Below are positions 106-17,929 of a stretch of 19,124 nt of DNA, one piece after another. The notes beneath the pieces were generated by a model. It was not told the DNA's origin. It searched no databases and saw nothing but the letters and a program-made list of their open reading frames with translations. Position numbers and translations under genes: made by a program. How positions within the stretch are numbered: the first letter of the stretch is position 1; every line of letters starts with the position of its first letter. This DNA comes from a virus (taxonomy: Duplodnaviria; Heunggongvirae; Uroviricota; Caudoviricetes): the IMG/VR virus record IMGVR_UViG_2695420427_000009, one strand, 5' to 3'.

Positions 106-2001
106 ATGAGCAAAGTAAAAATCGGTGAATTAATAAACTCACTTGTTAGCGATGTTGAGTCAATAGATAACTCTGACCGTCCTCAAGGGGAGAAAACAAA
201 AAAAATAAAGGCTGTTGCATTAAAATTTAAAAATGCATTATTTAATGACAAGCGAAAGTTTAGGGGGAAAGGATTAGAAAAAAGAATTACAGCCAACACA
301 TTCAATGCCTATATGAGCAGGGCCAGAAAACGGTTTGATGATAAACTTCATCATAGCTTTGAAAAAAATATACATCGCCTATCTGAAAAGTATCCTTTAT
401 ATAATGAGGAGCTATTGTCATGGCTTTCTCTACCTGCTGCCGATATTCGCCAGAGAATGTCAGCTTTACAGGCAAAATTAAAATTAATTCTCCCTCTATC
501 AGAAGATTTATCTAATATCAGAATTGGCGATAACAAAAGTCATAATAAGTTATTGAAATTATCAAATAAATATAAAGAGTGGCAATTCGCCATTTCTGAT
601 TTAACTAGCGATAACTGGAAAGATAAGCGCGATTATTTATATAAATTACTACAGCAAGGATCTGCCTTACTTGAGGAGTTGAATCAGCTAAAAGTTAACC
701 ATGAGATTCTCTATCATCTTCAACTAAGCCCTGCCGAACGTGCATCTATCCAGCAACGATGGGCGGACGTTCTGCACAATAAGAAACGTAACGTGGTGGT
801 CATTGATTACCCTAAATATATGCAAGCTATTTACGATATTATAAATAGCCCTGCTACATTAAATAATCTAAACACTCGTTCAGGTATGGCTCCTTTGGCA
901 TTTGCACTTGCTGCATTGTCAGGAAGACGAATGATTGAGATTATGTATCAAGGTACATTTACTGTTTCTGGTAAGTATACCGTTGATTTTTTAGGCCAAG
1001 CTAAAAAAAGAACTTCTGATGATATAACCAGAAAAATATATACATTATGCGAAGCAAAAACATTTGTTTATTTAATAAATGTACTTCGCTCATGCCCAGC
1101 AGCATCTGATTTTGATGATGTCGTTAAAGGTTATGGAGATAACGACACACGCTCTGAAAACGGACGTATTAATGCCATATTAGCAAAGGCTTTTAACCCG
1201 TGGGTTAAATCATTTTTCAAAGATGACCGCCGTGTTTATAAAGATAGTCGTGCTATTTATGCCCGTATTGCGTATGAAATGTTTTTCCGCGTAGATCCTC
1301 GTTGGAAAAACGTAGATGAAGATGTTTTCTTTATGGAAATTTTAGGCCATGACGATGAAAACACTCAATTACACTATAAGCAATTCAAGCTGGCCAACTT
1401 CTCAAAGACATGGAGGCCAAATACTGGAAACGAAAATACCAGGCTGGAAGCATTGCAGCAGCTTGATGACGAAATGCCTGGATTCGCCAGAGGAGATGCC
1501 GGGGTTCGTCTGCATAACACAGTTAAGCAGCTGGTAGAGCAGGACCCCTCTATAAAAATCACGAACAGCACTCTAAGAGCGTTCAAATTTAGCCCAACAA
1601 TGATTAGTCGATACCTGGAATTTGCTGCTGATGCTCTGGGGCAATTTGTTGGCGAAAACGGACAATGGCAACTGAAAATAGATACTCCAGAAATCGTTAT
1701 GCCTGACGAAGAAGAACTGGAAGCAATACCTGAACTGGCGGATGAATTATCAGAGGATGACGATCTGGATGACGACGAAATTGAGATAGAGGAAGAGGAA
1801 GAGGAAGATAGCGTAGAAGAACAGCAACCGCCTGCACCTTCTTCGCCTGTATCTAAGCCGGTATTTAAGCCGGTGAGAAATATTGGTGATGGCTCATACG
1901 TTGTTGAGTTTCATTATAATGGCCAGAATTATGCGTGGTCCGGCAGTGCAAACAGCCCCATGTCAGCAATGCAGTTAGCATGGCTGACATATTTCGGTTA
2001 A
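106..2001 (+). CDS. telN: Protelomerase (telomere resolvase) TelN, 631 aa
   Basis: Long ORF preceded by RBS caggagagg; length and sequence strongly resemble N15 TelN as I recall it; acidic DE-rich C-terminal region typical of this family. Confidence 0.9.
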   Translation: MSKVKIGELINSLVSDVESIDNSDRPQGEKTKKIKAVALKFKNALFNDKRKFRGKGLEKRITANTFNAYMSRARKRFDDKLHHSFEKNIHRLSEKYPLYNEELLSWLSLPAADIRQRMSALQAKLKLILPLSEDLSNIRIGDNKSHNKLLKLSNKYKEWQFAISDLTSDNWKDKRDYLYKLLQQGSALLEELNQLKVNHEILYHLQLSPAERASIQQRWADVLHNKKRNVVVIDYPKYMQAIYDIINSPATLNNLNTRSGMAPLAFALAALSGRRMIEIMYQGTFTVSGKYTVDFLGQAKKRTSDDITRKIYTLCEAKTFVYLINVLRSCPAASDFDDVVKGYGDNDTRSENGRINAILAKAFNPWVKSFFKDDRRVYKDSRAIYARIAYEMFFRVDPRWKNVDEDVFFMEILGHDDENTQLHYKQFKLANFSKTWRPNTGNENTRLEALQQLDDEMPGFARGDAGVRLHNTVKQLVEQDPSIKITNSTLRAFKFSPTMISRYLEFAADALGQFVGENGQWQLKIDTPEIVMPDEEELEAIPELADELSEDDDLDDDEIEIEEEEEEDSVEEQQPPAPSSPVSKPVFKPVRNIGDGSYVVEFHYNGQNYAWSGSANSPMSAMQLAWLTYFG

Positions 2002-2172: not shown

Positions 2173-2955
2173 CTATTTATTGGTGATTTCTGCTGGCTTT
2201 AGCTGCGCGGATAACTGCTCAAGTTTTTGAACTGCCAGTTCAAAATGCGCGGGTAACGCCTTTTCCAGATCAGAGTTAATATCGGTGATGGGTAAATCAC
2301 CACACGACATACTCCGCCTACCCCCACGAACAACATCACGCAACAACTCTCGTTCATACGTGCGCATGTTCCCCAATGCCGACTCAGCAGCCGTCAAAAT
2401 CCGGCGCAGTTCTGCCGTAATTGCTGGCAAATCATCAACCGTTATGGGGTTCGGGGATGGATTACGACACGCCCGACGCAAAGCTAACCATACACCGCTA
2501 ATCCAGGCATTTCGGTACTGAAAACTTTGTGCTATATCGTTAATCAGCCCTCGCAGATACTCTTTCTGCCTCCAGTTCAACGGCTCCGCTGCTCGCATTG
2601 GCTCAGGCTCGATGTAAACGTACTCTCCATTTTTGCGAATAGAGGGCAAGACTTCGTTCGTTACCCATTTGCGAAACCGCCAAGCTGTTGTGCCTTGCTT
2701 CACCGCGTCACGGCAGCGGAGGATCAGGGTGTATAGACCTGACTCTGAAATAATATTTAGCTTTTGCTCTCCGCCAGGGGTGTAACTTAAAGTTACACCC
2801 TTTTCATCCTCATCCAGAGACATTAGCGCCTTCCGGGAATTAACGAGTCTTAAAGCATCACATACATCCTTAGCCACAAACCACGGCTCACCGTTAATCA
2901 TCACTACACGAACCTGATGCTCTTCCTGAAAGGAAAAGACTGCTAACGCGCTCAT
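2173..2955 (-). CDS. BRO-N domain protein, antirepressor-like (260 aa)
   Basis: N-terminus FSFQEEHQVRVVMINGEPWFVAKDVCDALRL...EKGV...GGEQKLNIISESGLYTLIL...WVTNEVLPSIRKNG is a typical BRO-N / P22 Ant N-terminal-like domain; start overlaps the stop of the upstream ORF (operon). Confidence 0.75.
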   Translation of the reverse strand: MSALAVFSFQEEHQVRVVMINGEPWFVAKDVCDALRLVNSRKALMSLDEDEKGVTLSYTPGGEQKLNIISESGLYTLILRCRDAVKQGTTAWRFRKWVTNEVLPSIRKNGEYVYIEPEPMRAAEPLNWRQKEYLRGLINDIAQSFQYRNAWISGVWLALRRACRNPSPNPITVDDLPAITAELRRILTAAESALGNMRTYERELLRDVVRGGRRSMSCGDLPITDINSDLEKALPAHFELAVQKLEQLSAQLKPAEITNK

Positions 2956-3185
2956 TCAGCCTCCTTATCGCGCAGCAAGTGCGACGAGAGAGACGCAGAA
3001 TATCCCTGTGCTTCATGCGTTAACTCACACGCAATCTGCAGAAGTTTTCCAGCCTCTGAGAGGTAAATCGACGCCTCACAACTGGAGACTGTCCGATGGG
3101 CTGATGATACGAGCGCATAGACCTGAGCCAGACGTTCATCCAACGATTCCAGCAGGCCAACAGTGTTCATTTTTACCTGATTCAT
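2952..3185 (-). CDS. Hypothetical protein, 77 aa, middle gene of ant operon
   Basis: ORF translationally coupled at both ends (its ATG overlaps the stop of the Icd-like ORF; its stop overlaps the start of the BRO-N ORF); no recognisable motif. Confidence 0.5.
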   Translation of the reverse strand: MNQVKMNTVGLLESLDERLAQVYALVSSAHRTVSSCEASIYLSEAGKLLQIACELTHEAQGYSASLSSHLLRDKEAE

Positions 3186-3346
3186 GCAGCCACCTCGCGC
3201 ACCGGAATACGGGCAGACAATACCAGGACAAACCGGCTGGCGAACTGGCGACGAGCTTCCCGTTCAGATGACGCGATAGTGGAAAGATGATGAATGTGGG
3301 ACTTTTTGTCTGTGCGAACGACTGCCGCAAATTTGAATTTGAACAT
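3182..3346 (-). CDS. Icd-like small protein (54 aa), candidate cell-division inhibitor
   Basis: Hand-translated ORF MFKFKFAAVVRTDKKSHIHHLSTIASSEREARRQFASRFVLVLSARIPVREVAA, below the ORF-track length cutoff; GGAG RBS 9 nt upstream; stop overlaps ATG of next gene (ATGA); the F.F.AV.R...EREARR...F.L...AR.PV pattern matches my recollection of P1 Icd-like proteins. Confidence 0.5.
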   Translation of the reverse strand: MFKFKFAAVVRTDKKSHIHHLSTIASSEREARRQFASRFVLVLSARIPVREVAA

Positions 3347-3512
3347 GGTATGCACTCCGTTTTATTGGTCGTGCTACCACCAGAGTTGCGAATCTCTTTA
3401 TTGGTGGTAGCCCAGGCGGGGTTCGCAATACCGGTAAACGAAGAAACCGGCCCGACCGAAGTCAGCCCCACCTGAGCCACCATAATTCGGATATGCGCAG
3501 GTCTATACACAC

Positions 3513-3589
3513 AAAAAAACACGCTGGCGCGTGTTGTGCGCTTCGTTTTGCCAGGATTGCGAAGTCCCGACTGCGGGATTTACCGCAGC
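3513..3589 (-). ncRNA. Candidate c4/CA-like small regulatory RNA upstream of the Icd-like / antirepressor operon (~77 nt)
   Basis: Minus strand: promoter-like TTGACG-N18-TAAAGT, then a short transcript with three hairpins (CTGCGG-uaaauc-CCGCAG; CUUCG with a 14-nt loop; CACGC-gcca-GCGTG) ending in a U7 run, a canonical intrinsic terminator; loop sequence UUCGCAAU is complementary to AUUGCGAA in the downstream mRNA leader. Boundaries approximate. Confidence 0.4.
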
Positions 3590-5357: not shown

Positions 5358-5549
5358 TTACTCCCCGTTCACCGAAAAATCACGATAGAAACGTTTCCAC
5401 ATACGATAAGTCTGCGCGAGTTGTTCACCACGAAACATCGCCTTCCTGGCCTTCATGTTTTCCTTGTGAGACTTTCGATCTATGAACCAAAACCATTGCT
5501 GGAACACACAAAGCAAGAGACACAAAGATAATATCCACTGATTACCCAT
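5358..5549 (-). CDS. Putative small single-TM protein (63 aa), possibly coupled to repA
   Basis: In-frame ATG 2 nt after the repA stop codon gives MGNQWILSLCLLLCVFQQWFWFIDRKSHKEN..., a hydrophobic helix plus basic tail; the longer 102-aa form in the ORF track would overlap repA by about 125 nt. Confidence 0.35.
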   Translation of the reverse strand: MGNQWILSLCLLLCVFQQWFWFIDRKSHKENMKARKAMFRGEQLAQTYRMWKRFYRDFSVNGE

Positions 5550-8500
5550 AGAAAGCGCCCTGCTCTTCGTAGCTGCATGGGCTATTCCCGGTAATGTATT
5601 CACGTAACCGCCGCAGTTCATTGCTGGATAAGTGATCCATGAACTCTGTGAGGTACAGAGATGCAAACGTCATAGCTATGCTAGCTGATGACCATGATGA
5701 CATAGTGGCCAGCTCCTCACCGGAAAGCGCACTCATCGCCCAGGACTCAGGTACAACCACTGGCAACACAGCCAAAGCCTCAGAAATTACTGAATGAGGG
5801 GCGTTTTGAACCTGCTCGTTTGTGGATCGCGTTTTATCATCCATATATATATTGAGATCCAAATCGCGATCCATTTCGATGGCGGTCTTCTCGGCTTTAC
5901 GCGTTTTCAGGGTTAGGCCATCTTTCTGACGCTGAGCAAGAATATCCAGCATAAATGCCGCTGATTCAGGCTCAACAAAACGCAAGGTTGGACGCTTATC
6001 GCCGTCTCTGCCGCGACGTTTACCTGTTTTAAGGCCAAGAGAGTCGCAAATGTTTTTAAACAACGCTTCCGGCACTTTAGGCTTCCCTTTTGGCGTCATA
6101 AAACCACCAATGTGCAGAACGTTATTCAACAGGTCACGGCGTTCGGCTGTCATGAGGTTATCTCGAGCAAATTTGAGACGCTCCTGAGTCGCCTCGCCGG
6201 TCATAGTCTCAGGGTTGATACCGCAGTCGATAAAGTACTGCCGGAGAGTTGCTGATTTAAGCGCATAGAAACCGCGCGCCCCGACTTCAACAGTAGGAGT
6301 AGCTTTTACCTTGTGATCGATTATTCCAGGGAATTTAGTTTTAAAGACATCATCAGCCTGCTCGCGAGTCATCGCGGTCACTACAAAATATTGCCACTGT
6401 CCCGCCTGACGGTATGCGTAGGTAAAATTGATGGCTGCTTCTTCCCGGTCGTAACGACGAGCTGTTACCTCATCTAAAAGCATTGTTTCATAGCGGCGAA
6501 CTTTGTCTCGAGCACCATCGAAATAGAATTTCAGCGTGCCTTCTTCAACCGGTAGTTTCAGTTCGTTTTCAATATCCCAGCGGACAAGTTTTGCCTGTTC
6601 TTCAAGCGTCAGCGCGCGTTTTTTTAGCAGTTCTTCACGCTCTGATTCTTGTGGAGTTTCTGTATTGAGATGCAGATCCAGTGTCTGTTCCCACACAATA
6701 TCCCGCGCTTCTTTACGCAGCTCTTTACCGATATCATTCGCAGCATAATCGGTGGCCAGCGGCGATACCTTATAACCGTCGCTGTGCATGATGCAGATCA
6801 TGTTGCTGGCGTAGTCGTTACGCGCAGTCGCTTCAATAGCGGCTGCTTTAATTTTCATCCTGGTAAAGTCGGTATTGGCCACCCCCATTGATATACGGTC
6901 GCCATCGAAAACGACATCCGTCAGTTCACCGTTCATACCTGCGGTAGCAAGCAATGCCTGGGCGAATGCTCGTTCTATTTTTTGCGGGTCAGTTTCACGT
7001 TTTGCACGAGCTTTATCAAAGCCGATAATAAATTCTTTTGCTGTACGGTCGCGGCGTAGCATTTGCACTGCGTCGCTGGGTACAACTTCACCACAGAACA
7101 TGCCGAAATGACGGTCAAAATGTTTTTGCTCAATCGACACGCCGGATGAAATAGACGGGCTATAAATCAGGCCGTCGTATTTTTTGACCATCTTTTTCGG
7201 TTGATTGGTAAATGCTTCAACTTCTGGCTCTGGTTTGTTTTTCTGGTTTACACACAGAAATTTCTTACCAGGAAAATGCATTCTCAGGGTGGCGGTCACA
7301 TCTTCTGCAAAGGTGGAGCTGTCGGTGGCCAACATGATTTTTTCGCCATTCGATACAGCTTTCACCACCTCGGTCATAATGCGATCTTTTTCTGTATAAA
7401 AAACCCGGATTGGCTCACCTGTTTCGCGGTTGCGAACATCAACAGGTAATTCAATTACGTGGATCTGCAGCCATGCCGGTAAACCTAGTTCTTCACGGCG
7501 TTTCATAGCCAGTTCAGCCAGGTCAACCAGCAGATCGTTCGCATCAGCATCCACCATTATTGGGTGTTGTTCCGTTCTGGCCAGCGCGTCAATTAACGTA
7601 TTGAATACAGCCACCGGGTTTTCCATAGCCCGACCGGAAAGAACGGCACGTAGCCCTTGCGTGGCCTCGTCAAAGCCAAAATAGTCGTGCTGGCGCATCA
7701 ATGGTTGCCAGCAGTTTTTAACAATCGAGTTTATGCAGATGGTCAGTTTACTGGCGTATGGAGCCATTTCCTGATAGCCAGGGTCCTGATAGTGCAGGAT
7801 ATCGGCTTTTACACCTTTTCCTTCTGTCATCATTTCCCACAGGCCACCAATAAGGGAAACACGGTGAGCAACAGAGATACCACGTTCTGAGCTATGCATT
7901 AAAGGTCGTAACAATCCAGTAGATTTGCCGGAACCCATACCAGCACGAACGATGACTATCCCCTGTAGTGATTGCACATACTTCAGGACGTCATCGGTCA
8001 TTACCGAAGTTTCAAAACGCTTATAGGTGATATGTTGAGGACGTTTATTGGGATCAGTTATTCGTTCGCTGAATGAGCGCGGAGCCTGGGCAATACGGCA
8101 CTTTTTATTCAGGCGACGGGCAATGTGGTCTTTTACCGTAGCGCGATAGATATTTTCCAGCCCAATTTCACGCAGGGCGATGCAGAACATGTTAAATAAG
8201 TCTGACGGACTGTTAGGAACCGGACAGGTTAGCATGCCAATATCCACTGCTCTCAGCAGCTCTTTGGCAAAAGTACGACGGTTATCCCGCTTAATTGTCT
8301 TCAGGCGGTTGAGCGTCAGAGATAGCAAATCAGTGCCAGTTTTCAGGCGGTTTGCAGTTGCAAACAGTTGACGTGCTGTTTCACGAAGTCCACGTAGTTT
8401 GTGCAGGTCGTTGAAGTCACTGCACTCCATTTGCGGATCGTCTTCAAAAGTTGGATAGACGCAGCGGACATCGTTGAATTTCGATAAGATTTCATAGCCA

Positions 8501-9537
8501 GTCCGCAGGCCGGTATTCCCTTTTCCTTCTGTAGCTGATTTCCGGTCATTATCCAGTGCGCAGGTGATTTTTGCCGCCGGGTACATGTTTACCAGTTGTT
8601 CCACAACATGAACCATGTTGTTAGCGGATACAGCGACAACCACAGCGTCAAAGCGTTTATCTTTTTTCGTGGCAAGCCAGATGGATGCACCAGTAGCAAA
8701 ACCTTCTGTAACAGCGATGTTTTGCGCCCCTTTCAGCTCACCGATAACAAAGCAGGCACCGACGAAATCGCCGCTGGTTACGGCGCTGGTCTGGTATTTT
8801 CCACCTTGTTTGTCGATTCGCTGCCAACCAACAATACGACCATCGTAACGACCGTCCAGGTGAGCCAGAGGGATAGCCATATACGTGGTTGGCCCCCTGC
8901 TCCATTTTGCGCTGTCGTGACTGGTCACGCGACGCACATCACACGAATTAAAAACGTCACGAATACCTTTTTTAATCGCATATGGCCATGAGCCGTCTTC
9001 TGCAGGAGCATGTTCCCAAGCACTGTGGAATGCCAGCCATCCCAGCAAACGTTCATGGTCCATTTGGTTGTTTTTCAGGTCATTAATTCGTTTTTGTTCT
9101 TCACGGCGACGACGTGCTTCGGCCTGACGTTCTATTCTTGCCCGTTCTTCTTCCGGTTGTGCGACCACGGTCGCATTATTCCGTTGTTGCTCACGGCGAT
9201 ATTCAGAAAACAGGAAGGAGAAACCGCTCCATGAGCCAGCATCGCTGCCTTTATGGACGAAGTTAATGAACGGGTAATCAATCCCTTTGCTGTGTTCCAG
9301 CCGGGAGTAAATTTCTACGCGTCCTTTGAGGCTCTTTTCGAGAGCTTCTGGGGATGTTTTATTGTATGAAGAGTAACGCTCAACACCCCCGCGAGGGTTG
9401 AGTTGGATGTTGTCGGAACAGGCAGACCAGTTGATACCAGCCATCTGTGCCAGCTCGGTTAGTTCATCCCGTGCTGCTTCAATTAGCGAGAACGGATCGC
9501 TGCCAAAGCGATCCGCATAGAAATCGTTTAATGTCAT
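5542..9537 (-). CDS. repA: Replication protein RepA, primase-helicase (1331 aa)
   Basis: Size matches N15 RepA (~1320 aa); N-terminal primase-like region with acidic motifs (TEGFATGASI, ALDNDRKS); central Walker A VRAGMGSGKST; located between the ant region and cB as in N15. Confidence 0.9.
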   Translation of the reverse strand: MTLNDFYADRFGSDPFSLIEAARDELTELAQMAGINWSACSDNIQLNPRGGVERYSSYNKTSPEALEKSLKGRVEIYSRLEHSKGIDYPFINFVHKGSDAGSWSGFSFLFSEYRREQQRNNATVVAQPEEERARIERQAEARRRREEQKRINDLKNNQMDHERLLGWLAFHSAWEHAPAEDGSWPYAIKKGIRDVFNSCDVRRVTSHDSAKWSRGPTTYMAIPLAHLDGRYDGRIVGWQRIDKQGGKYQTSAVTSGDFVGACFVIGELKGAQNIAVTEGFATGASIWLATKKDKRFDAVVVAVSANNMVHVVEQLVNMYPAAKITCALDNDRKSATEGKGNTGLRTGYEILSKFNDVRCVYPTFEDDPQMECSDFNDLHKLRGLRETARQLFATANRLKTGTDLLSLTLNRLKTIKRDNRRTFAKELLRAVDIGMLTCPVPNSPSDLFNMFCIALREIGLENIYRATVKDHIARRLNKKCRIAQAPRSFSERITDPNKRPQHITYKRFETSVMTDDVLKYVQSLQGIVIVRAGMGSGKSTGLLRPLMHSSERGISVAHRVSLIGGLWEMMTEGKGVKADILHYQDPGYQEMAPYASKLTICINSIVKNCWQPLMRQHDYFGFDEATQGLRAVLSGRAMENPVAVFNTLIDALARTEQHPIMVDADANDLLVDLAELAMKRREELGLPAWLQIHVIELPVDVRNRETGEPIRVFYTEKDRIMTEVVKAVSNGEKIMLATDSSTFAEDVTATLRMHFPGKKFLCVNQKNKPEPEVEAFTNQPKKMVKKYDGLIYSPSISSGVSIEQKHFDRHFGMFCGEVVPSDAVQMLRRDRTAKEFIIGFDKARAKRETDPQKIERAFAQALLATAGMNGELTDVVFDGDRISMGVANTDFTRMKIKAAAIEATARNDYASNMICIMHSDGYKVSPLATDYAANDIGKELRKEARDIVWEQTLDLHLNTETPQESEREELLKKRALTLEEQAKLVRWDIENELKLPVEEGTLKFYFDGARDKVRRYETMLLDEVTARRYDREEAAINFTYAYRQAGQWQYFVVTAMTREQADDVFKTKFPGIIDHKVKATPTVEVGARGFYALKSATLRQYFIDCGINPETMTGEATQERLKFARDNLMTAERRDLLNNVLHIGGFMTPKGKPKVPEALFKNICDSLGLKTGKRRGRDGDKRPTLRFVEPESAAFMLDILAQRQKDGLTLKTRKAEKTAIEMDRDLDLNIYMDDKTRSTNEQVQNAPHSVISEALAVLPVVVPESWAMSALSGEELATMSSWSSASIAMTFASLYLTEFMDHLSSNELRRLREYITGNSPCSYEEQGAFYG
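5824..5872. other. Origin-like structure inside the 3-prime part of repA: inverted repeat GGATCGCG / CGCGATCC flanking AT-rich CATATATATATT, with three GATC sites
   Basis: Seen directly in sequence; N15 ori is reported to lie within the 3-prime part of repA (established knowledge); exact correspondence not verifiable here. Confidence 0.3.
8916..8929. repeat. Palindrome CGTGAC-tg-GTCACG (copy 2 of palindrome family B), inside repA coding sequence
   Basis: Exact 12-mer GTGACTGGTCAC shared with 14851-14862 and, in opposite orientation, with 3650-3661. Confidence 0.6.
9158..9175. other. SopB-type centromere-like palindrome TGTGCGACC-ac-GGTCGCA (copy 1 of family A), inside repA coding sequence
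   Basis: Arms TGCGACC / GGTCGCA with 2-bp centre; 6 of 7 arm positions match the F-plasmid sopC core TGGGACC-AC-GGTCCCA as I recall it; same element at 11602 and 16589. Confidence 0.6.
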
Positions 9538-9688: not shown

Positions 9689-9782
9689 CGTCTTTTTTCT
9701 GCTGCTGTAACCTGAGTCAACCCACAGAACATATGCTCTGCATTAAACCAGATTTACAGCAAACAATAAACCCCGTATTAAG

Positions 9783-10379
9783 TCATCTACCCTCAACCAT
9801 GAATGATTTGATCGTTCCGACTATTTGGTGAACAAATTCAAGATCGCTTTTCCTGAAGATAGCGCGTTGTGAATTTGTTCCGTCCAGATAGTAATTTTCA
9901 TCATCAAAACGGGCCAGGCGCTGGATGGTGATATTTCCTGCAGTATCACGAACCAGAACATCCTCGCCGGGGACCAGTTCCAGCGCAGAATCGACCAGGA
10001 GAAAATCGCCAGGCTGATAGTTTCCCTGCGCCAGATTGCTGATAGTTAACGCATAAACAGTATTGCGCTGGCTGATGAATGGCAGGAATCGCTCAGTATT
10101 TGGAACCTGTCCTGGCTTCCACTCTTCATCAGGTCCACTTTCAGTTGTGCCAATAACAGGAATGCGATCAGGGTCATATTCTGTCCCATACAGCACCCAA
10201 TGCACTGGCTTGCGTAAGCATTTAGCCAGGGCAATACCTATCTCCAGTGACGGCATTACGTCGCCACGTTCTAAGTTTTGGACGCCTGCAATAGAGATAT
10301 CGACAGCCTCAGCAACTTCTCGCAACGTCAGCTTCATCTCTAAACGGCGTGCTTTCAGTCGTTCGCCTCGTGTTTTCAT
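9783..10379 (-). CDS. cB: Prophage repressor CB (cI-like; N-terminal HTH_XRE, C-terminal S24/LexA-like fold), 198 aa
   Basis: HTH LTLREVAEAVDISIAGVQNLERG at the N-terminus; divergent from the Cro-like gene across an operator-bearing intergenic region; size matches N15 CB. Confidence 0.8.
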   Translation of the reverse strand: MKTRGERLKARRLEMKLTLREVAEAVDISIAGVQNLERGDVMPSLEIGIALAKCLRKPVHWVLYGTEYDPDRIPVIGTTESGPDEEWKPGQVPNTERFLPFISQRNTVYALTISNLAQGNYQPGDFLLVDSALELVPGEDVLVRDTAGNITIQRLARFDDENYYLDGTNSQRAIFRKSDLEFVHQIVGTIKSFMVEGR

Positions 10380-10401
10380 AGCTTAATCATAAATGATCTT
10401 C

Positions 10402-10443
10402 TTATAGCTGGCTATAAAATTTATTTATTATAGCTGGCTTTAA
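10402..10443. promoter_or_regulatory. Operator pair in the cB-cro intergenic region: TTATAGC-tg-GCTATAA (10402-10417, perfect 16-bp palindrome) and TTATAGC-tg-GCTTTAA (10428-10443)
   Basis: Two 16-bp sites spaced 26 bp centre to centre; the second abuts the cro ATG; an additional palindrome ATCAT-aa-ATGAT sits at 10386-10397. Confidence 0.6.
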
Positions 10444-10692
10444 ATGAGATTTATTGCTTATAATAACCGCATGAAACCAGAAGAACTTATTCGCCACTTT
10501 GGCAGTGTAGAAAAAGCAGCGGCTGGGGTAGGTGTAACACCCGGTGCTGTTTACCAATGGTTAACCGCTGGAGAGATTCCTTCATTGCGGCAAAGTGATA
10601 TTGAAGTTCGTACTGCTTACAAGCTGAAGAGTGACTTTACAACTCGGCGGGTAAAGCAGTCGATTAAGGAGAGCCGTAAGCGTGGAGCTTGA
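10444..10692 (+). CDS. cro: Cro-like HTH regulator (82 aa)
   Basis: Small ORF divergent from cB with HTH SVEKAAAGVGVTPGAVYQWL; an alternative start at M10 (10471) is possible. Confidence 0.7.
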   Translation: MRFIAYNNRMKPEELIRHFGSVEKAAAGVGVTPGAVYQWLTAGEIPSLRQSDIEVRTAYKLKSDFTTRRVKQSIKESRKRGA

Positions 10693-11392
10693 GTATATAC
10701 GCAGCTGCGTCTCCACGGCATTGGCTGATATTCATTATCGCCAGCGTGGCATCCTAGAGGTCCAGCTTGAGCAGATGCGTCTAGGCAGATCAGGACGCTT
10801 TAACAATAAACCAGTCCGGTCAATCAGTGTAGGTGATGATAACTCATACGAAGTGTCCGTTCCTGCTGAGCCGGTTAGATTCCACCAGGGGAAAACATTT
10901 AAACAATCATCAATGTTGCTCACTGATATTGATTTTCAGAGCGCCAGCTGGCGCAGGGCTATTGGTCAGTTGAATAACGAGGAATCAGCCTGGCTTTATT
11001 ATTGCTACGGATGCAAGCCTGATTACAACAATGATGTGATTGTTTGTCAGTGGTTATGGCTTGATTTTCTGGTTGCTCATTCGGGGGGCGGCTTTAAAAA
11101 AATGAAGGCCTCCACGAAAAAAGCCATGCGGAAATTGATTTATTACGCGGCACAGCAGGTTAAATCAGAACTTACGTGTGCTGAGGCAGTTGATGAGAGA
11201 GAACAGGACAGGCATCTGAGTTTTCTACTGAATATATCTATTGATAGCTGGAGACAAGATTATAAAGAACGCTGGCTTTTAATTAAGTCGCGATGTCTGA
11301 GCTTAAATCGAACTGCATTATTAAATGCGGCGGAGAAGCGCAGTGAAATCATCAAACGCCATCGGGCAGGAAGTGCCATTCTGCCTTTGTAA
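10682..11392 (+). CDS. Q-like putative late-gene antiterminator (236 aa from GTG 10682; first in-frame ATG at 10775)
   Basis: Assigned mainly by synteny (cB-cro-Q order as in N15 and lambdoid phages) and a Cys-containing motif YYCYGC; no motif I can verify by eye. Confidence 0.4.
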   Translation: MELEYIRSCVSTALADIHYRQRGILEVQLEQMRLGRSGRFNNKPVRSISVGDDNSYEVSVPAEPVRFHQGKTFKQSSMLLTDIDFQSASWRRAIGQLNNEESAWLYYCYGCKPDYNNDVIVCQWLWLDFLVAHSGGGFKKMKASTKKAMRKLIYYAAQQVKSELTCAEAVDEREQDRHLSFLLNISIDSWRQDYKERWLLIKSRCLSLNRTALLNAAEKRSEIIKRHRAGSAILPL

Positions 11393-14872: not shown

Positions 14873-15028
14873 ATGGACAAAAAGGCATTGCTTTTTGAAA
14901 TGATACGAAAACGGAGCGAAAAGAGCTTTTCTGATGGTGGTGATGGGCTTTTGAAAGTGGTTGGGCGAGGCGTAGGAAGGGAACATAAGTATCGGACTAC
15001 AAAGATATTTAACCAGTTAATCCATTGA
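14873..15028 (+). CDS. Small hypothetical protein (51 aa), absent from the ORF track
   Basis: ATG preceded by GGAGGG RBS at 7-nt spacing; MDKKALLFEMIRKRSEKSF... Confidence 0.35.
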   Translation: MDKKALLFEMIRKRSEKSFSDGGDGLLKVVGRGVGREHKYRTTKIFNQLIH

Positions 15029-15029
15029 A

Positions 15030-15046
15030 AGTTGGCTATAAAATTT
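15030..15046. promoter_or_regulatory. 17-mer AGTTGGCTATAAAATTT, 16/17 identical to the right half of the cB-cro operator plus flank (10406-10422)
   Basis: Direct comparison within the window; suggests a CB operator half-site and/or a shared -10 element TATAAAAT. Confidence 0.45.
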
Positions 15047-15054
15047 GAGTTTTA

Positions 15055-15074
15055 CCCTGTAATTTTATACAGTA
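15055..15074. promoter_or_regulatory. LexA (SOS) box CCCTGTAATTTTATACAGTA
   Basis: CTGT-N8-ACAG with AT-rich spacer and 3-prime TA; the only such site in the window; 23 bp upstream of the 15097 ORF. Confidence 0.6.
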
Positions 15075-15096
15075 TCAAATAACCTTTTTTAATTAA

Positions 15097-15315
15097 ATGG
15101 TATTAGATTCAATGACTGAAGCACCTGTATCAACTCTTGAAGAACTCGGATCAAACCTAAAAGACATCGACGCCGTTTTGGATCTGGTTAGCGTTGCTCT
15201 GGCTTCTCCAGAAGCCAGCTTGCATCTTGGCGAGATTTCACGACTTGTTAGTATGTCGCGGGAGATTGCTCAGAATTGCCAACAAGTTATTGCTGTTGAG
15301 TGTTTACATCATTGA
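15097..15315 (+). CDS. Small protein (72 aa) under a LexA box, candidate SOS-inducible antirepressor (N15 AntC-like role)
   Basis: ORF directly downstream of the LexA box; no strong RBS (alternative start at 15112); functional call is inference from context. Confidence 0.45.
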   Translation: MVLDSMTEAPVSTLEELGSNLKDIDAVLDLVSVALASPEASLHLGEISRLVSMSREIAQNCQQVIAVECLHH

Positions 15316-15321
15316 TACACA

Positions 15322-15341
15322 CCCCGCCCTTCTGGACGGGG
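15322..15341. terminator. GC-rich hairpin between convergent genes (possible bidirectional terminator)
   Basis: CCCCG...CGGGG stem with 4-nt loop; no clean U tract on either strand. Confidence 0.3.
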
Positions 15342-15358
15342 TAGCGAAAAGGGTCTAA

Positions 15359-15646
15359 TCAATAGACGGCATTAATATTAATCGTTGCACCGCATGCTTG
15401 GGCATATTTTGATAAAGTTTTCATGCTTGCCCCTAAAGGATTGCTTTCCAGGCGGCTGATAGCTGACGGGCGCAATCCCATTCGTTCAGCCAGAGCTGAC
15501 TTCGTTAAACCTGCTCTTTCCCTCATTTCGTATAACATTTCGACCATCTCCAGCTCTTTATCGGCCTCTTCATATCCTTTGATGGCTTCTGGAGTGTTGA
15601 GAAGTTTTTCTTTTACTTCGTTAAACGGGATGCCTTTCGCTTTCAT
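15359..15646 (-). CDS. HigA-like antitoxin, HTH_XRE family (95 aa)
   Basis: HTH LTKSALAERMGLRPSAISRLE; start overlaps toxin stop (TGATG); located downstream of toxin as in HigBA-type modules. Confidence 0.75.
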   Translation of the reverse strand: MKAKGIPFNEVKEKLLNTPEAIKGYEEADKELEMVEMLYEMRERAGLTKSALAERMGLRPSAISRLESNPLGASMKTLSKYAQACGATININAVY

Positions 15647-15957
15647 CAGTTCATCTCCTTCAGGCGAGTTCTGGCGATTTCGATAGCCTTCACCGGTGTT
15701 TTCTGTGTCTTTTTTACAAATGCATGCAATAGATAAATTTCGTTACCAGTCGCGTAGGCGTACAGCGTTCTTGCGATGTTTTTATCCCCTACTCGTAGTT
15801 CAAAAAGCCCTCCACCTATTACACGGCTATGGGGCATCTTCAGTTTGTTGCCTTCTTTCTCCAGTCGCTCAATTAATCTGGTCATGCGACCTCGCAAATC
15901 ATCTGGTAGTTCAAGCAGTTCATCCAGTGCTGCAGGGTGGGTTATCACGTTAAACAT
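15646..15957 (-). CDS. RelE/ParE-superfamily toxin, HigB-like / phage Gp49-like (103 aa)
   Basis: GGAGG RBS 8 nt upstream; sequence ...GGGLFELRVGDKNIARTLYAYATGNEIYLLHAFVKKTQKTP matches the Gp49-like toxin pattern; toxin-first gene order. Confidence 0.75.
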   Translation of the reverse strand: MFNVITHPAALDELLELPDDLRGRMTRLIERLEKEGNKLKMPHSRVIGGGLFELRVGDKNIARTLYAYATGNEIYLLHAFVKKTQKTPVKAIEIARTRLKEMN

Positions 15958-16803: not shown

Positions 16804-16817
16804 CGCGATGCGCATCG
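16804..16817. promoter_or_regulatory. Perfect 14-bp palindrome GCGATGCGCATCGC immediately upstream of the methyltransferase
   Basis: Seen directly; overlaps the alternative upstream ATG (16808) of the methyltransferase ORF. Confidence 0.4.
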
Positions 16818-16852
16818 CCGGGTTAGCTTACCCAGGCAAAAAAATAATAGCT

Positions 16853-17929
16853 ATGTTCAAAACCACTAATATTCATGGCGCACAACTCGTTTGCGCAGAT
16901 TCTCTGCAATTTATCAAAACCATCCCTGATAACTCGGTCAATTTGATTGCAACAGACCCACCATACTTCGGCGTAAAGGCTAACGCATGGGATAACCAGT
17001 GGGATAGCGATGCTGACTTTTTGGGGTGGATTGACGAATTTTTGGCAGAATTTTGGCGGATATTGGCCCCTAATGGCAGCCTGTATATGTTTACCGGCTC
17101 TCGCCTTGCGTCAAAAATTGAATTATTAACTCGCGACCGTTTCAATGTTCTGAACCATATCATTTGGGCTAAACCCAGTGGTATGTGGCGCGGTTGTCAT
17201 AAAGAAAGTTTAAGGGCTTATTTTCCTGCTACTGAAAGAATATTATTTGCAGAGCATTACGGCACGTCAGGTTATGCTAAAGGTCAGTCAGGTTATGCTT
17301 CAAAATGTGCAGATTTAAGAAAAAATATTTTTTCTCCACTAATTGATGCTTTTTCGCTGGCTCGCCGTCAGTTAGATATATCAGCCGCAGACATTAATTC
17401 AGCGACAGGAAAGCAGATGTGTTCACACTGGTTTTCTTATTCGCAGTGGCGGCTTCCATCATTAATTGATTTTAATAAACTATGCGAATTATTTCGCAGG
17501 AAGGCAGATTCACTCGGTGTCCCGTGTCCATATCCTTTTAATGTTGATTATTCAGAACATGAAAAGCGTTATAGCGATCTGAAATTGCATTATGAGGAAG
17601 AAAAGAAGCAGTATGATGATTTGAAGGCTCAGTATGAAAATTTACGCCGTCCATTTCATGTTACTGCTGATGTACCTTATACCGATGTATGGGAGTTTCC
17701 TCCTGTGCAATATTATCCTGGCAAGCACCCATGTGAAAAACCTGCAGCGATGATGGAACATATTATAAAGAGTAGTTCACGCCCCGGAGATATCGTTGCC
17801 GATTTCTTTATGGGATCAGGCTCAACTATTAAAGCTGCGCTGAAGTTAGGACGTCAGGCAATAGGTATTGAGATTGAGGGCGAACGTTATCTTCAGACAG
17901 TTGATGAAGTGAAAAAGTTATTTGAGTAA
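16853..17929 (+). CDS. Orphan DNA methyltransferase, beta-class (N6-adenine or N4-cytosine; motif IV DPPY before motif I FxGxG), 358 aa
   Basis: N-terminal DPPY and C-terminal FFMGSGST with an intervening target-recognition region; no restriction endonuclease partner visible; start could be the upstream ATG at 16808. Confidence 0.75.
   Translation: MFKTTNIHGAQLVCADSLQFIKTIPDNSVNLIATDPPYFGVKANAWDNQWDSDADFLGWIDEFLAEFWRILAPNGSLYMFTGSRLASKIELLTRDRFNVLNHIIWAKPSGMWRGCHKESLRAYFPATERILFAEHYGTSGYAKGQSGYASKCADLRKNIFSPLIDAFSLARRQLDISAADINSATGKQMCSHWFSYSQWRLPSLIDFNKLCELFRRKADSLGVPCPYPFNVDYSEHEKRYSDLKLHYEEEKKQYDDLKAQYENLRRPFHVTADVPYTDVWEFPPVQYYPGKHPCEKPAAMMEHIIKSSSRPGDIVADFFMGSGSTIKAALKLGRQAIGIEIEGERYLQTVDEVKKLFE

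Follow-up and report, generated by a model that had tools for sequence, protein, structure and literature searches.

What is the role of the small palindrome ATCATAAATGAT, which lies at positions 10386-10397 between the divergent cB and cro genes of a tailed virus? The DNA analyzed (hereafter, the window) is a stretch of 19,124 nucleotides from IMG/VR record IMGVR_UViG_2695420427_000009. A first-pass annotation had correctly located this element, with its 5-nt arms and 2-nt centre, within a lambda-like immunity switch. It counted only two cB-type operators in the switch and proposed that the palindrome is a third element, perhaps a site for a different protein such as Cro or an antirepressor-related factor. 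Comparisons with related sequences suggest another answer. Probably, the left arm of the palindrome is the -10 hexamer of a cB promoter, the palindrome is not a separate protein-binding site, its symmetry is incidental, and the switch has three OR operators.

The lambda-like character of the switch is borne out and can be made more precise. In the window, genes for an HTH repressor (cB) and a P22_Cro-type protein (cro) diverge, and Q lies directly 3' of cro. The locus is the ordinary, already known immB-type immunity switch of N15-like linear plasmid-prophages, and the window is the right arm of such a prophage of the N15 family (telomere phage). TelN, RepA, CB, Cro and Q are all encoded in the window, which therefore has both the protelomerase and the RepA by which a linear plasmid-prophage is recognized. 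The genes that matter here are as follows.

106-2001: protelomerase, an ORF with TelK/ResT domains
5542-9537, minus strand: repA, an ORF for a primase/replicase of 1331 aa, the target of OL control
9783-10379, minus strand: cB, encoding a prophage repressor of 198 aa with an N-terminal HTH_3 domain and a degenerate S24-like C-terminal domain
10471-10692, plus strand: cro, encoding 73 aa (Pfam P22_Cro, E=2e-22; N15 Cro, PDB 2HIN/6ON0, E=2e-32)
10682-11392, plus strand: a Q-like antiterminator gene in an operon with cro (Pfam Phage_antiter_Q, E=2e-84)

Further genes in the window correspond to a BRO-N protein, an Ash-family protein, a HigBA-like pair, a methylase and lysis genes. Annotations of repA homologues in related genomes read primase, "origin of replication binding family protein" or "plasmid replication protein, CyRepA1 family". 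The cB-cro region has 99.6% identity to that of Escherichia phage PhiR46_1, 96.6% to that of YDC107_1, and ~76% to those of N15, phiKO2 and their relatives. The same switch is found in 214 PLSDB plasmids and in 18 of 5,426 complete E. coli genomes, and all 21 places matched in the latter are on plasmids. As a discovery, the locus is of small value: publications on N15, phiKO2 and PY54 already describe the switch, its five operators and the specificity of Cro for OR3, and a phage genome with 99.6% identity has already been deposited.

The two regulators resemble their N15 counterparts closely. CB is 78% identical to N15 CB and 77% identical to phiKO2 CB, and the N15 identities of Cro and CB together fall in the range of 76-78%. 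The CB sequence has a clear HTH_3 match in Pfam (E=3e-11), and its Peptidase_S24 score of 21.3 bits is under the cut-off of 23.3. No sequence match was found between the CB C-terminal domain and solved LexA/CI C-terminal structures; only the HTH matches structures. These domain results agree with the published absence of cleavage motifs (PMC4997575). The first two residues of the CB recognition helix differ from those of N15 (ISIAG here, ISLPG in N15). Residues 1-57 of Cro are nearly invariant, and its recognition helix, TPGAVYQWL, is identical to that of N15 and phiKO2, so that the determinants of Cro specificity (recognition helix and OR3) are as in structure 6ON0. The C-terminal tail of Cro differs from that of N15.

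Three 16-bp elements of the form T-A-N10-T-A lie between these two genes.

10402-10417: OR3, TTATAGCTGGCTATAA, predicted Cro site and low-affinity CB site, identical to N15 OR3 (U45242, 887-902)
10428-10443: OR2, TTATAGCTGGCTTTAA, predicted CB operator, aligned with N15 OR2, TTATACCTAGCTTTAA, at 913-928
10451-10466: OR1, TTATTGCTTATAATAA, predicted strongest CB operator, with one mismatch to N15 OR1, TTATTGATTATAATAA, at 936-951

Much of the earlier description of these elements holds. OR3 is a perfect palindrome with 7-nt arms and a non-symmetric TG centre, and OR2 is a 15/16 copy of it. Both had been taken to be repressor operators, and their N15 homologues, OR3 and OR2, are annotated as such and bound experimentally (PMC4997575). 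The N15 record U45242 annotates OR3, OR2 and OR1, together with two OL sites, as CB binding sites. The comparison with the N15 OR sites that the first-pass annotation had recommended thus matches the two known elements, but it also matches OR1, and the count of two sites was wrong. OR1 was overlooked because it has five mismatches to OR3. A search with the OR3 motif at three mismatches or fewer likewise finds OR3 and OR2 but cannot find OR1, and was replaced. With a palindromic weight matrix built from N15 and phiKO2 sites only and scored over the 19-kb window, OR3 (21.5 bits), OR2 (19.8 bits) and OR1 (15.0 bits) occupy ranks 1, 2 and 3, and the score of OR1 is reached anywhere in only 2% of shuffled windows. 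The 16-mer family as a whole is beyond chance, with five strand-matches at three mismatches or fewer, versus 0.20 expected; none of 200 shuffles reaches five. Since there are three OR operators, as in N15 and lambda, the extra palindrome is not needed as a third element.

The arrangement of the operators is also conserved. Centre-to-centre distances are 26 bp for OR3-OR2 and 23 bp for OR2-OR1, as in N15, and are constant in 14 of the 14 N15-like sequences tabulated. OR3 is invariant in 15 N15-like relatives. The resemblance of OR2 to OR3 is 15/16 in this E. coli clade, versus 13-14/16 in other N15-like relatives; the left half-site of OR2, including the TG centre, matches OR3 perfectly, and the two operators differ only in base pair 4 of the right half-site.

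Based on comparison among relatives, cro is assigned a start at 10471, which places OR1 between OR2 and cro. OR2 had been described as abutting the cro start, a part of its description that does not stand. The ATG at 10444 is present only in the window and in PhiR46_1, and is TTG or ATT elsewhere in the clade; it was rejected as the cro start. At the place that corresponds to window 10471, every relative has ATGAA(A/G)CC. Crystallized N15 Cro (2HIN/6ON0) starts with MKPEEL and aligns with the window Cro from residue 1, and PGAP annotation of close relatives uses the 10471-type start. A likely correction follows for PhiR46_1 and YDC107_1, in which cro is annotated 27 nt too far upstream.

Experiments with related phages indicate which protein binds to which operator. 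The CB protein of phiKO2 binds OR1, OR2, OR3, OL1 and OL2, of which OR1 is bound most strongly, and it also binds the N15 operators (PMC4997575). In EMSAs, phiKO2 Cro binds the 16-bp OR3 alone, and just one complex appears with the entire OR region (PMC4997575). For N15 Cro, EMSAs gave an apparent KD of 90 nM with OR3 and no binding to OR2 or OR1 up to ~1 uM, and the protein has been co-crystallized with a symmetrized OR3 (6ON0; PMC6649833). Because of these binding data, the identical recognition helix and the identical OR3, the perfect 16-mer OR3 is predicted to be the Cro site in the window, and the small palindrome is not. By homology with N15 and phiKO2, Cro would not be expected to bind OR1 or OR2 and repress its own promoter. 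Operator-binding assignments here come from the N15, phiKO2 and PY54 experiments, and homology, geometry and conservation come from the present analysis.

The position of the palindrome relative to cB suggests a different function for its left arm.

10386-10391, minus strand: TATGAT, predicted -10 hexamer of a cB-proximal promoter, the left arm of the palindrome at 10386-10397

On the cB strand, TATGAT (10391 to 10386) is followed by 6 nt (10385-10380) and then by the A of the cB ATG at 10379. The sequence TAGCCA (10414 to 10409), inside OR3, is 17 nt upstream of TATGAT on the same strand. This TAGCCA-17-TATGAT combination (minus strand, 10414 to 10386) is the sole sigma70-like hit of a promoter scan in the cB-cro spacer, but the scan found 2 hits over 1 kb versus 1.9 expected in shuffles and by itself proves nothing, and the -35 hexamer matches the consensus at only 4/6 positions. 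Geometry and conservation make the promoter the most likely assignment. In the N15 record U45242, the homologous hexamer (871-876, minus strand) is annotated as a -10 element, and the homologous TAGCCA as the -35 element, on the cB strand.

We compared this promoter in 19 distinct relatives, including PY54, P840, a Xenorhabdus prophage and Enterobacteriaceae LSJC7, whose repressors have low identity to CB (34-40% for PY54 and P840, 43% for Xenorhabdus, 38% for LSJC7). A profile scan of genome contigs supplied three useful distant relatives, and a search of viral contigs with the single CB protein returned near-identical copies only. In all 19 relatives, TAT-N-AT is exactly 17 nt from the TAG-YY-A of an OR3-like site, and in all 19 it occurs 6-7 nt before the ATG of MK(T/K)RG. 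The symmetric pattern ATCAT-NN-ATGAT is kept in 11 of the 19, N15 among them, and the other eight have no symmetry. Because the -10 geometry is kept in every relative and the palindrome in only 11, the core promoter appears to be the conserved object and the symmetry incidental. The sole variable position of the -10 hexamer is position 4 (G or T), and a change there destroys the palindrome arm. Position 4 is the least constrained position of the sigma70 -10 element. Within the N15-like group, in which 11 of 15 sequences have a perfect palindrome, the symmetry may have an additional, clade-specific function.

The 6 nt between the -10 hexamer and the cB ATG have no room for a fitting Shine-Dalgarno sequence, and these 6-7 nt vary freely among the relatives. 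The same arrangement is found in mirror image at cro, where TATAAT (10459-10464, plus strand, inside OR1) is followed by 6 nt and then by the ATG at 10471; this geometry of a -10 element, 6 nt and ATG was found at cro in the 16 relatives that match the search pattern. Both genes thus have a -10 hexamer 6-7 nt before a start codon that is without a Shine-Dalgarno sequence, as is characteristic of leaderless transcription. Leaderless mRNAs are predicted for both cB and cro, with that of cB beginning at the A of the ATG at 10379. The ATG contained in TATGAT was considered as an upstream start for cB and, for this phage, rejected. Its frame in the window is not that of cB (ATG ATT AAG CTA TGA). 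It is absent in Xenorhabdus and LSJC7, and in frame with the repressor only where the spacer between -10 and ATG is 7 nt. The cB or cI genes of N15, phiKO2 and PY54 are annotated from the ATG inside their own -10 hexamers, which suggests another likely correction of start codons.

Transcription data from PY54 and phiKO2 bear on this assignment. RACE experiments, as reported in the text of the PY54 paper, detected one mRNA from cI and one from cro, both leaderless (PMC4488713). The geometry of PY54 cro is CATAAT, 6 nt and ATG, with a -10 element validated by mutations (PMC4488713). That text leaves unstated at which of two in-frame AUGs the cI RACE product has its 5' end. If the cI mRNA begins at the annotated AUG inside the hexamer, TATGAT cannot be the -10 element of PY54. 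The ambiguity over two AUGs does not arise in the window, because the upstream ATG is out of frame.

The luciferase insert of PY54 begins at 32,525, and those of phiKO2 at 39,146 or 39,148; these positions precede the annotated ATG by 1-3 nt. Since this ATG is inside TATGAT, the inserts carry at most the first base of the hexamer, and the -10 element is missing from the constructs. A 59-bp PY54 insert that contains OR3 and the -35 element without the -10 was barely above background, and its authors found it unclear which promoter yields the leaderless cI mRNA (PMC4488713). A TATGAT promoter may explain both the inactivity of this insert and the origin of the leaderless cI mRNA. The published phiKO2 and PY54 reporters would then have cut off the most conserved cB/cI promoter, and the hexamer may answer the authors' question about the promoter. 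Reporter work on phiKO2 detected other active cB promoters, P1 near cro and P2 bordering OR3, as well as several cro promoters that overlap operators (PMC4997575). Given P1 and P2, the TATGAT promoter may be neither the sole nor the main promoter of cB.

It was also proposed that the palindrome is a dedicated site for a second regulator, whether Cro, an antirepressor-related protein or a host protein, that replaces a missing operator. We regard this as very unlikely. Its perfect form in 11 relatives, N15 included, would fit such a site, and the exact pattern occurs once in the window and in only 8 of 200 whole-window shuffles. Moreover, the 80-bp substrate used in phiKO2 EMSAs probably did not contain the whole element, which is imperfect in phiKO2 anyway. 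However, no operator is missing once OR1 is recognized. The Cro of N15 and phiKO2, with the same recognition helix as that of the window, uses OR3, and a single Cro complex forms on the phiKO2 OR region. A role for an antirepressor is at odds with the description of AntC as acting on the repressor, not on DNA. The symmetry is lost in eight relatives. In these the left arm persists as a -10 element, whereas the right arm has become TAGAT in E. asburiae and ACGAT in phiKO2 and Klebsiella and is absent in PY54, P840, Xenorhabdus and LSJC7. The palindrome is also not beyond chance within the 91-nt cB-cro spacer, whose GC content is 26%: 78% of dinucleotide shuffles of this spacer hold at least one perfect 5+5 palindrome with a centre of 0-4 nt, and 20% hold one inside the first 22 nt. 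Apart from the operators, the real spacer has two more 5+5 palindromes, at 10414 and 10441. Small palindromes and inverted repeats elsewhere in the spacer were dismissed as AT-rich noise, and the one at 10414, which was checked, is broken in N15. As for host factors, comparison of the palindrome by eye to IHF and Fur sites gave no convincing match.

Two more readings concern the right half of the palindrome and its RNA copy. The right half overlaps a Dam site.

10395-10398: GATC, in the promoter spacer at -19 to -16, the conserved part of the right half of the palindrome, in which the ATGAT arm is not conserved

Methylation or hemimethylation of this site by Dam might tune cB transcription and link it to replication of the plasmid-prophage, a reading that we consider unlikely but worth keeping as a possible lead, and that is compatible with a -10 role for the left arm. 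GATC occurs in the promoter spacer of 17 of the 19 relatives, and AGATC is invariant in the N15-like group while its flanks vary. Xenorhabdus keeps GATC in register though all seven other non-operator positions of the spacer differ. In the window, GATC is under-represented (42 versus 73 expected), a gene of a DNA methylase family is found at 16808-17929 (Pfam N6_N4_Mtase), and a DNA adenine methylase is annotated in the nearest phage record, in the part that corresponds to the window. Against this, P840 and LSJC7 have no GATC, that of PY54 is 3 nt closer to the -10 element, and the sequences are related, so that they do not count as independent observations. A lone GATC within a promoter spacer is often without effect, and a literature search found no paper linking Dam to the cB promoter. 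If Dam does act here, hemimethylation behind the replication fork would transiently change cB transcription and couple the supply of CB to plasmid copy number. As for RNA, the palindrome could be a hairpin in the 5' leader of cB transcripts that come from upstream, near cro, and could control translation or stability. Active upstream cB/cI promoters in phiKO2 and PY54 mean that leader-containing transcripts may exist. This hairpin is nonetheless highly improbable, and we rejected it. A stem of 5 bp, rich in A/U, cannot as such form around a loop of 2 nt, and the region 10370-10420 (minus strand) folds at -7.3 kcal/mol (z=-1.87), a value equalled by 10 of 200 shuffles. The predicted helices do not pair ATCAT with ATGAT, and no compensatory change conserves the arm. 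The assignment of the left arm to a cB promoter is thus the reading that we carry forward.

Predicted operators upstream of repA complete the immunity region, and lie between the 3' end of cB and repA.

9754-9769: OL2, TTACAGCAAACAATAA, predicted CB operator, aligned with the N15 site at 237-252 (13.7 bits, rank 4)
9731-9746: OL1 homologue, ATATGCTCTGCATTAA, positional homologue of N15 OL1 at 214-229 (5.0 bits, rank 42)

The OL1 homologue is a weak, degenerate match, and its function as an operator is uncertain. The spacing between OL1 and OL2 is 23 bp, the same as that between OR1 and OR2. A repA promoter, TTTATT-17-TTTAAT (9770 to 9742), was assigned by homology with the N15 annotation, and its hexamers are conserved in the alignment. 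OL2 covers the -35 hexamer TTTATT (9765-9770, minus strand), and the OL1 homologue overlaps the -10 hexamer TTTAAT (9742-9747, minus strand).

The sites overlap the promoters in a way that suggests how the switch could work. We infer transcription starts and protein binding in this phage from the related systems. OR3 spans -23 to -38 of the cB promoter and includes the -35 hexamer TAGCCA (10409-10414, minus strand), and OR1 includes the cro -10 hexamer TATAAT. In a lysogen, CB dimers on OR1 and OR2, 23 bp apart, and on OR3 would block the cro/Q promoters, including the one with TATAAT; CB at OR3 would also repress cB itself. CB at OL2, and perhaps at OL1, would cover the repA promoter and hold down repA, and hence plasmid copy number. 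Upon SOS induction, a LexA-controlled, AntC-like protein (15057-15315) would inactivate CB. Cro, translated from its leaderless mRNA, would then bind OR3 only, cover the -35 element of the cB promoter and switch off repressor synthesis.

The candidate for the antirepressor is a 72-aa ORF at 15097-15315.

15057-15072, plus strand: LexA-box-like CTGTAATTTTATACAG, upstream of the 72-aa ORF

A counterpart in N15, between genes 47 and 48, consists of CTGTGTTTATATACAG and an ORF with 57% identity. The 72-aa ORF is a probable SOS-controlled antirepressor of CB of the antC type. In N15, induction involves AntC, a LexA-controlled antirepressor whose described target is the prophage repressor, and similar antirepressors under LexA control are described as binding their repressor proteins (PMC3121763, PMC4488713). 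In sequence, the window thus resembles systems with a repressor that does not cleave itself and a LexA-controlled antirepressor, with functions taken from the literature. A CB-like site at 15026-15041, beside the LexA box, was discarded: its score of 12.9 bits compares with a mean best score of 11.4 and a maximum of 16.0 in shuffles, and it is not conserved in N15.

Among known systems, N15 immB (Lobocka et al. 1996, GenBank U45242) is the most similar. The gene order, cB-OR-cro-Q with OL upstream of repA, is the same, as are the 26/23-bp operator spacings and the position of OL2. OR3 is identical and OR1 is one base off, the homologous TATGAT and TAGCCA are annotated on the cB strand, the Cro recognition helix is identical, and CB is 78% identical. 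The differences are that OR2 matches OR3 at 15/16 in the window versus 13/16 in N15, that the OL1 homologue of the window has diverged and scores weakly, and that the first two residues of the CB helix and the C-terminal tail of Cro are different. Also, the spacer between -10 and the cB ATG is 6 nt in the window versus 7 in N15, so that in the window the ATG inside TATGAT is not in frame. The phiKO2 immB region (Hammerl et al. 2016, PMC4997575) likewise has three OR and two OL operators, with an identical OR3, but its own copy of the palindrome, ATCATAAACGAT, is imperfect, and several positions of its OR1 and OR2 are different.

PY54 immB (Hammerl et al. 2015, PMC4488713) is more distant. Its OR3-like palindrome adjoins the repressor gene, and it shares the TAGCCA-17-TATGAT geometry, the cro arrangement of -10, 6 nt and ATG, the leaderless cI and cro mRNAs (found by RACE in PY54, predicted in the window) and the predicted binding of Cro to a single site. 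However, it has one recognizable operator in the spacer, a repressor ~34% identical to that of the window and no ATCAT/ATGAT symmetry, and the peripheral bases of its OR3, which set Cro specificity, differ. With the OR region, PRM and PR of lambda, the window shares divergent repressor and cro genes with three operators between them and, as predicted, a leaderless repressor mRNA (that of lambda cI from PRM) and the shutting off of the repressor promoter by Cro via OR3. In contrast to lambda, operators of the N15 type are 16 bp long with their symmetry axis between base pairs, and Cro has an all-alpha fold of the P22-Cro type. Since N15 and phiKO2 Cro bind only OR3, repression of its own promoter is not expected. 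In CB no autocleavage motif is detectable, and a LexA-controlled antirepressor probably inactivates the protein; OL controls a plasmid replication gene.

The near-identity of OR2 and OR3, together with the degenerate OL1, could alter Cro autoregulation and copy-number control in this E. coli lineage. In the co-crystal of N15 Cro with DNA (6ON0, PMC6649833), Gln H6 and Thr H0 read base pair 4 of the half-site. A smaller possibility is that OR2, now one base from OR3, is a second Cro site in this clade. Cro would in that case have lambda-like control of its own promoters, which is absent in N15, phiKO2 and PY54.

The predicted promoter of the repressor gene cB includes a potential site for Dam methylation.
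10395-10398: GATC at -19 to -16, within the spacer between the predicted cB promoter hexamers

This GATC is kept in 17 of the 19 relatives compared, among them a Xenorhabdus prophage in which all other non-operator bases of the spacer differ. GATC is under-represented in the window as a whole (42 observed, 73 expected). The cB promoter might be sensitive to methylation through this tetranucleotide.

Members of this E. coli clade have an operator OR2 (10428-10443) that differs from OR3 by a single base and has a perfect left half-site. In N15, phiKO2 and other N15-like relatives, by contrast, OR2 matches OR3 at only 13 to 14 of 16 positions. OR3 is the only site bound by the Cro proteins of N15 and phiKO2; OR2 might be a second Cro site in this E. 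coli clade.

Public records place the start codons of both divergent genes at positions that are likely misannotations. The cro start in the records of PhiR46_1 and YDC107_1 is at the equivalent of 10444 (ATG or TTG), versus 10471. In the N15, phiKO2, PY54 and P840 records, the cB/cI start is an ATG that lies within the -10 hexamer TATGAT, at the following positions in relatives' loci.
L001 (numbering as in N15, U45242), 873-875: annotated cB/cI start ATG
L004, 2190-2192: annotated cB/cI start ATG
L030, 789-791: annotated cB/cI start ATG
The reporter constructs published for phiKO2 and PY54 took this ATG as the gene start, and therefore do not include the -10 element.

Two OL positions at the repA promoter scored differently with a matrix built from validated sites.
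9731-9746: positional homologue of N15 OL1, with the diverged sequence ATATGCTCTGCATTAA
This homologue reaches 5.0 bits and rank 42, whereas OL2 (9754-9769) has rank 4. CB may control repA mainly via OL2 in this clade.

A further locus is probably that of antC, the SOS-controlled antirepressor gene.
15057-15342: LexA-box-like CTGTAATTTTATACAG, then a 72-aa ORF (15097-15315), then a terminator-like GC hairpin
The same layout is found in N15, in the interval from gene 47 to gene 48; the ORF there carries no annotation. Fifteen nucleotides upstream of the LexA box lies an operator-like sequence, TGAAAGTTGGCTATAA (15026-15041; 12.9 bits, fifth best in the window). This sequence is probably a chance match, since it lacks conservation in N15 and its score is within the range of shuffled sequence. 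Adjoining the antC-like locus on the minus strand are side-by-side genes for Gp49-family (103 aa) and HTH_3 (95 aa) proteins (15359-15957), whose products look like a HigB/HigA-type toxin-antitoxin pair.

Two other genes are situated between telN and repA.
2173-2955, minus strand: BRO-N domain protein gene
3136-3522, minus strand: Ash-family protein gene
The N15 secondary immunity genes (immA, antirepressor) would presumably lie at about this position. PhiR46_1 (PV340565.1), the nearest sequenced relative, covers only 86% of the window, in five pieces with 98% identity where aligned, and thus ~14% of the window is mosaic or different with respect to this phage.
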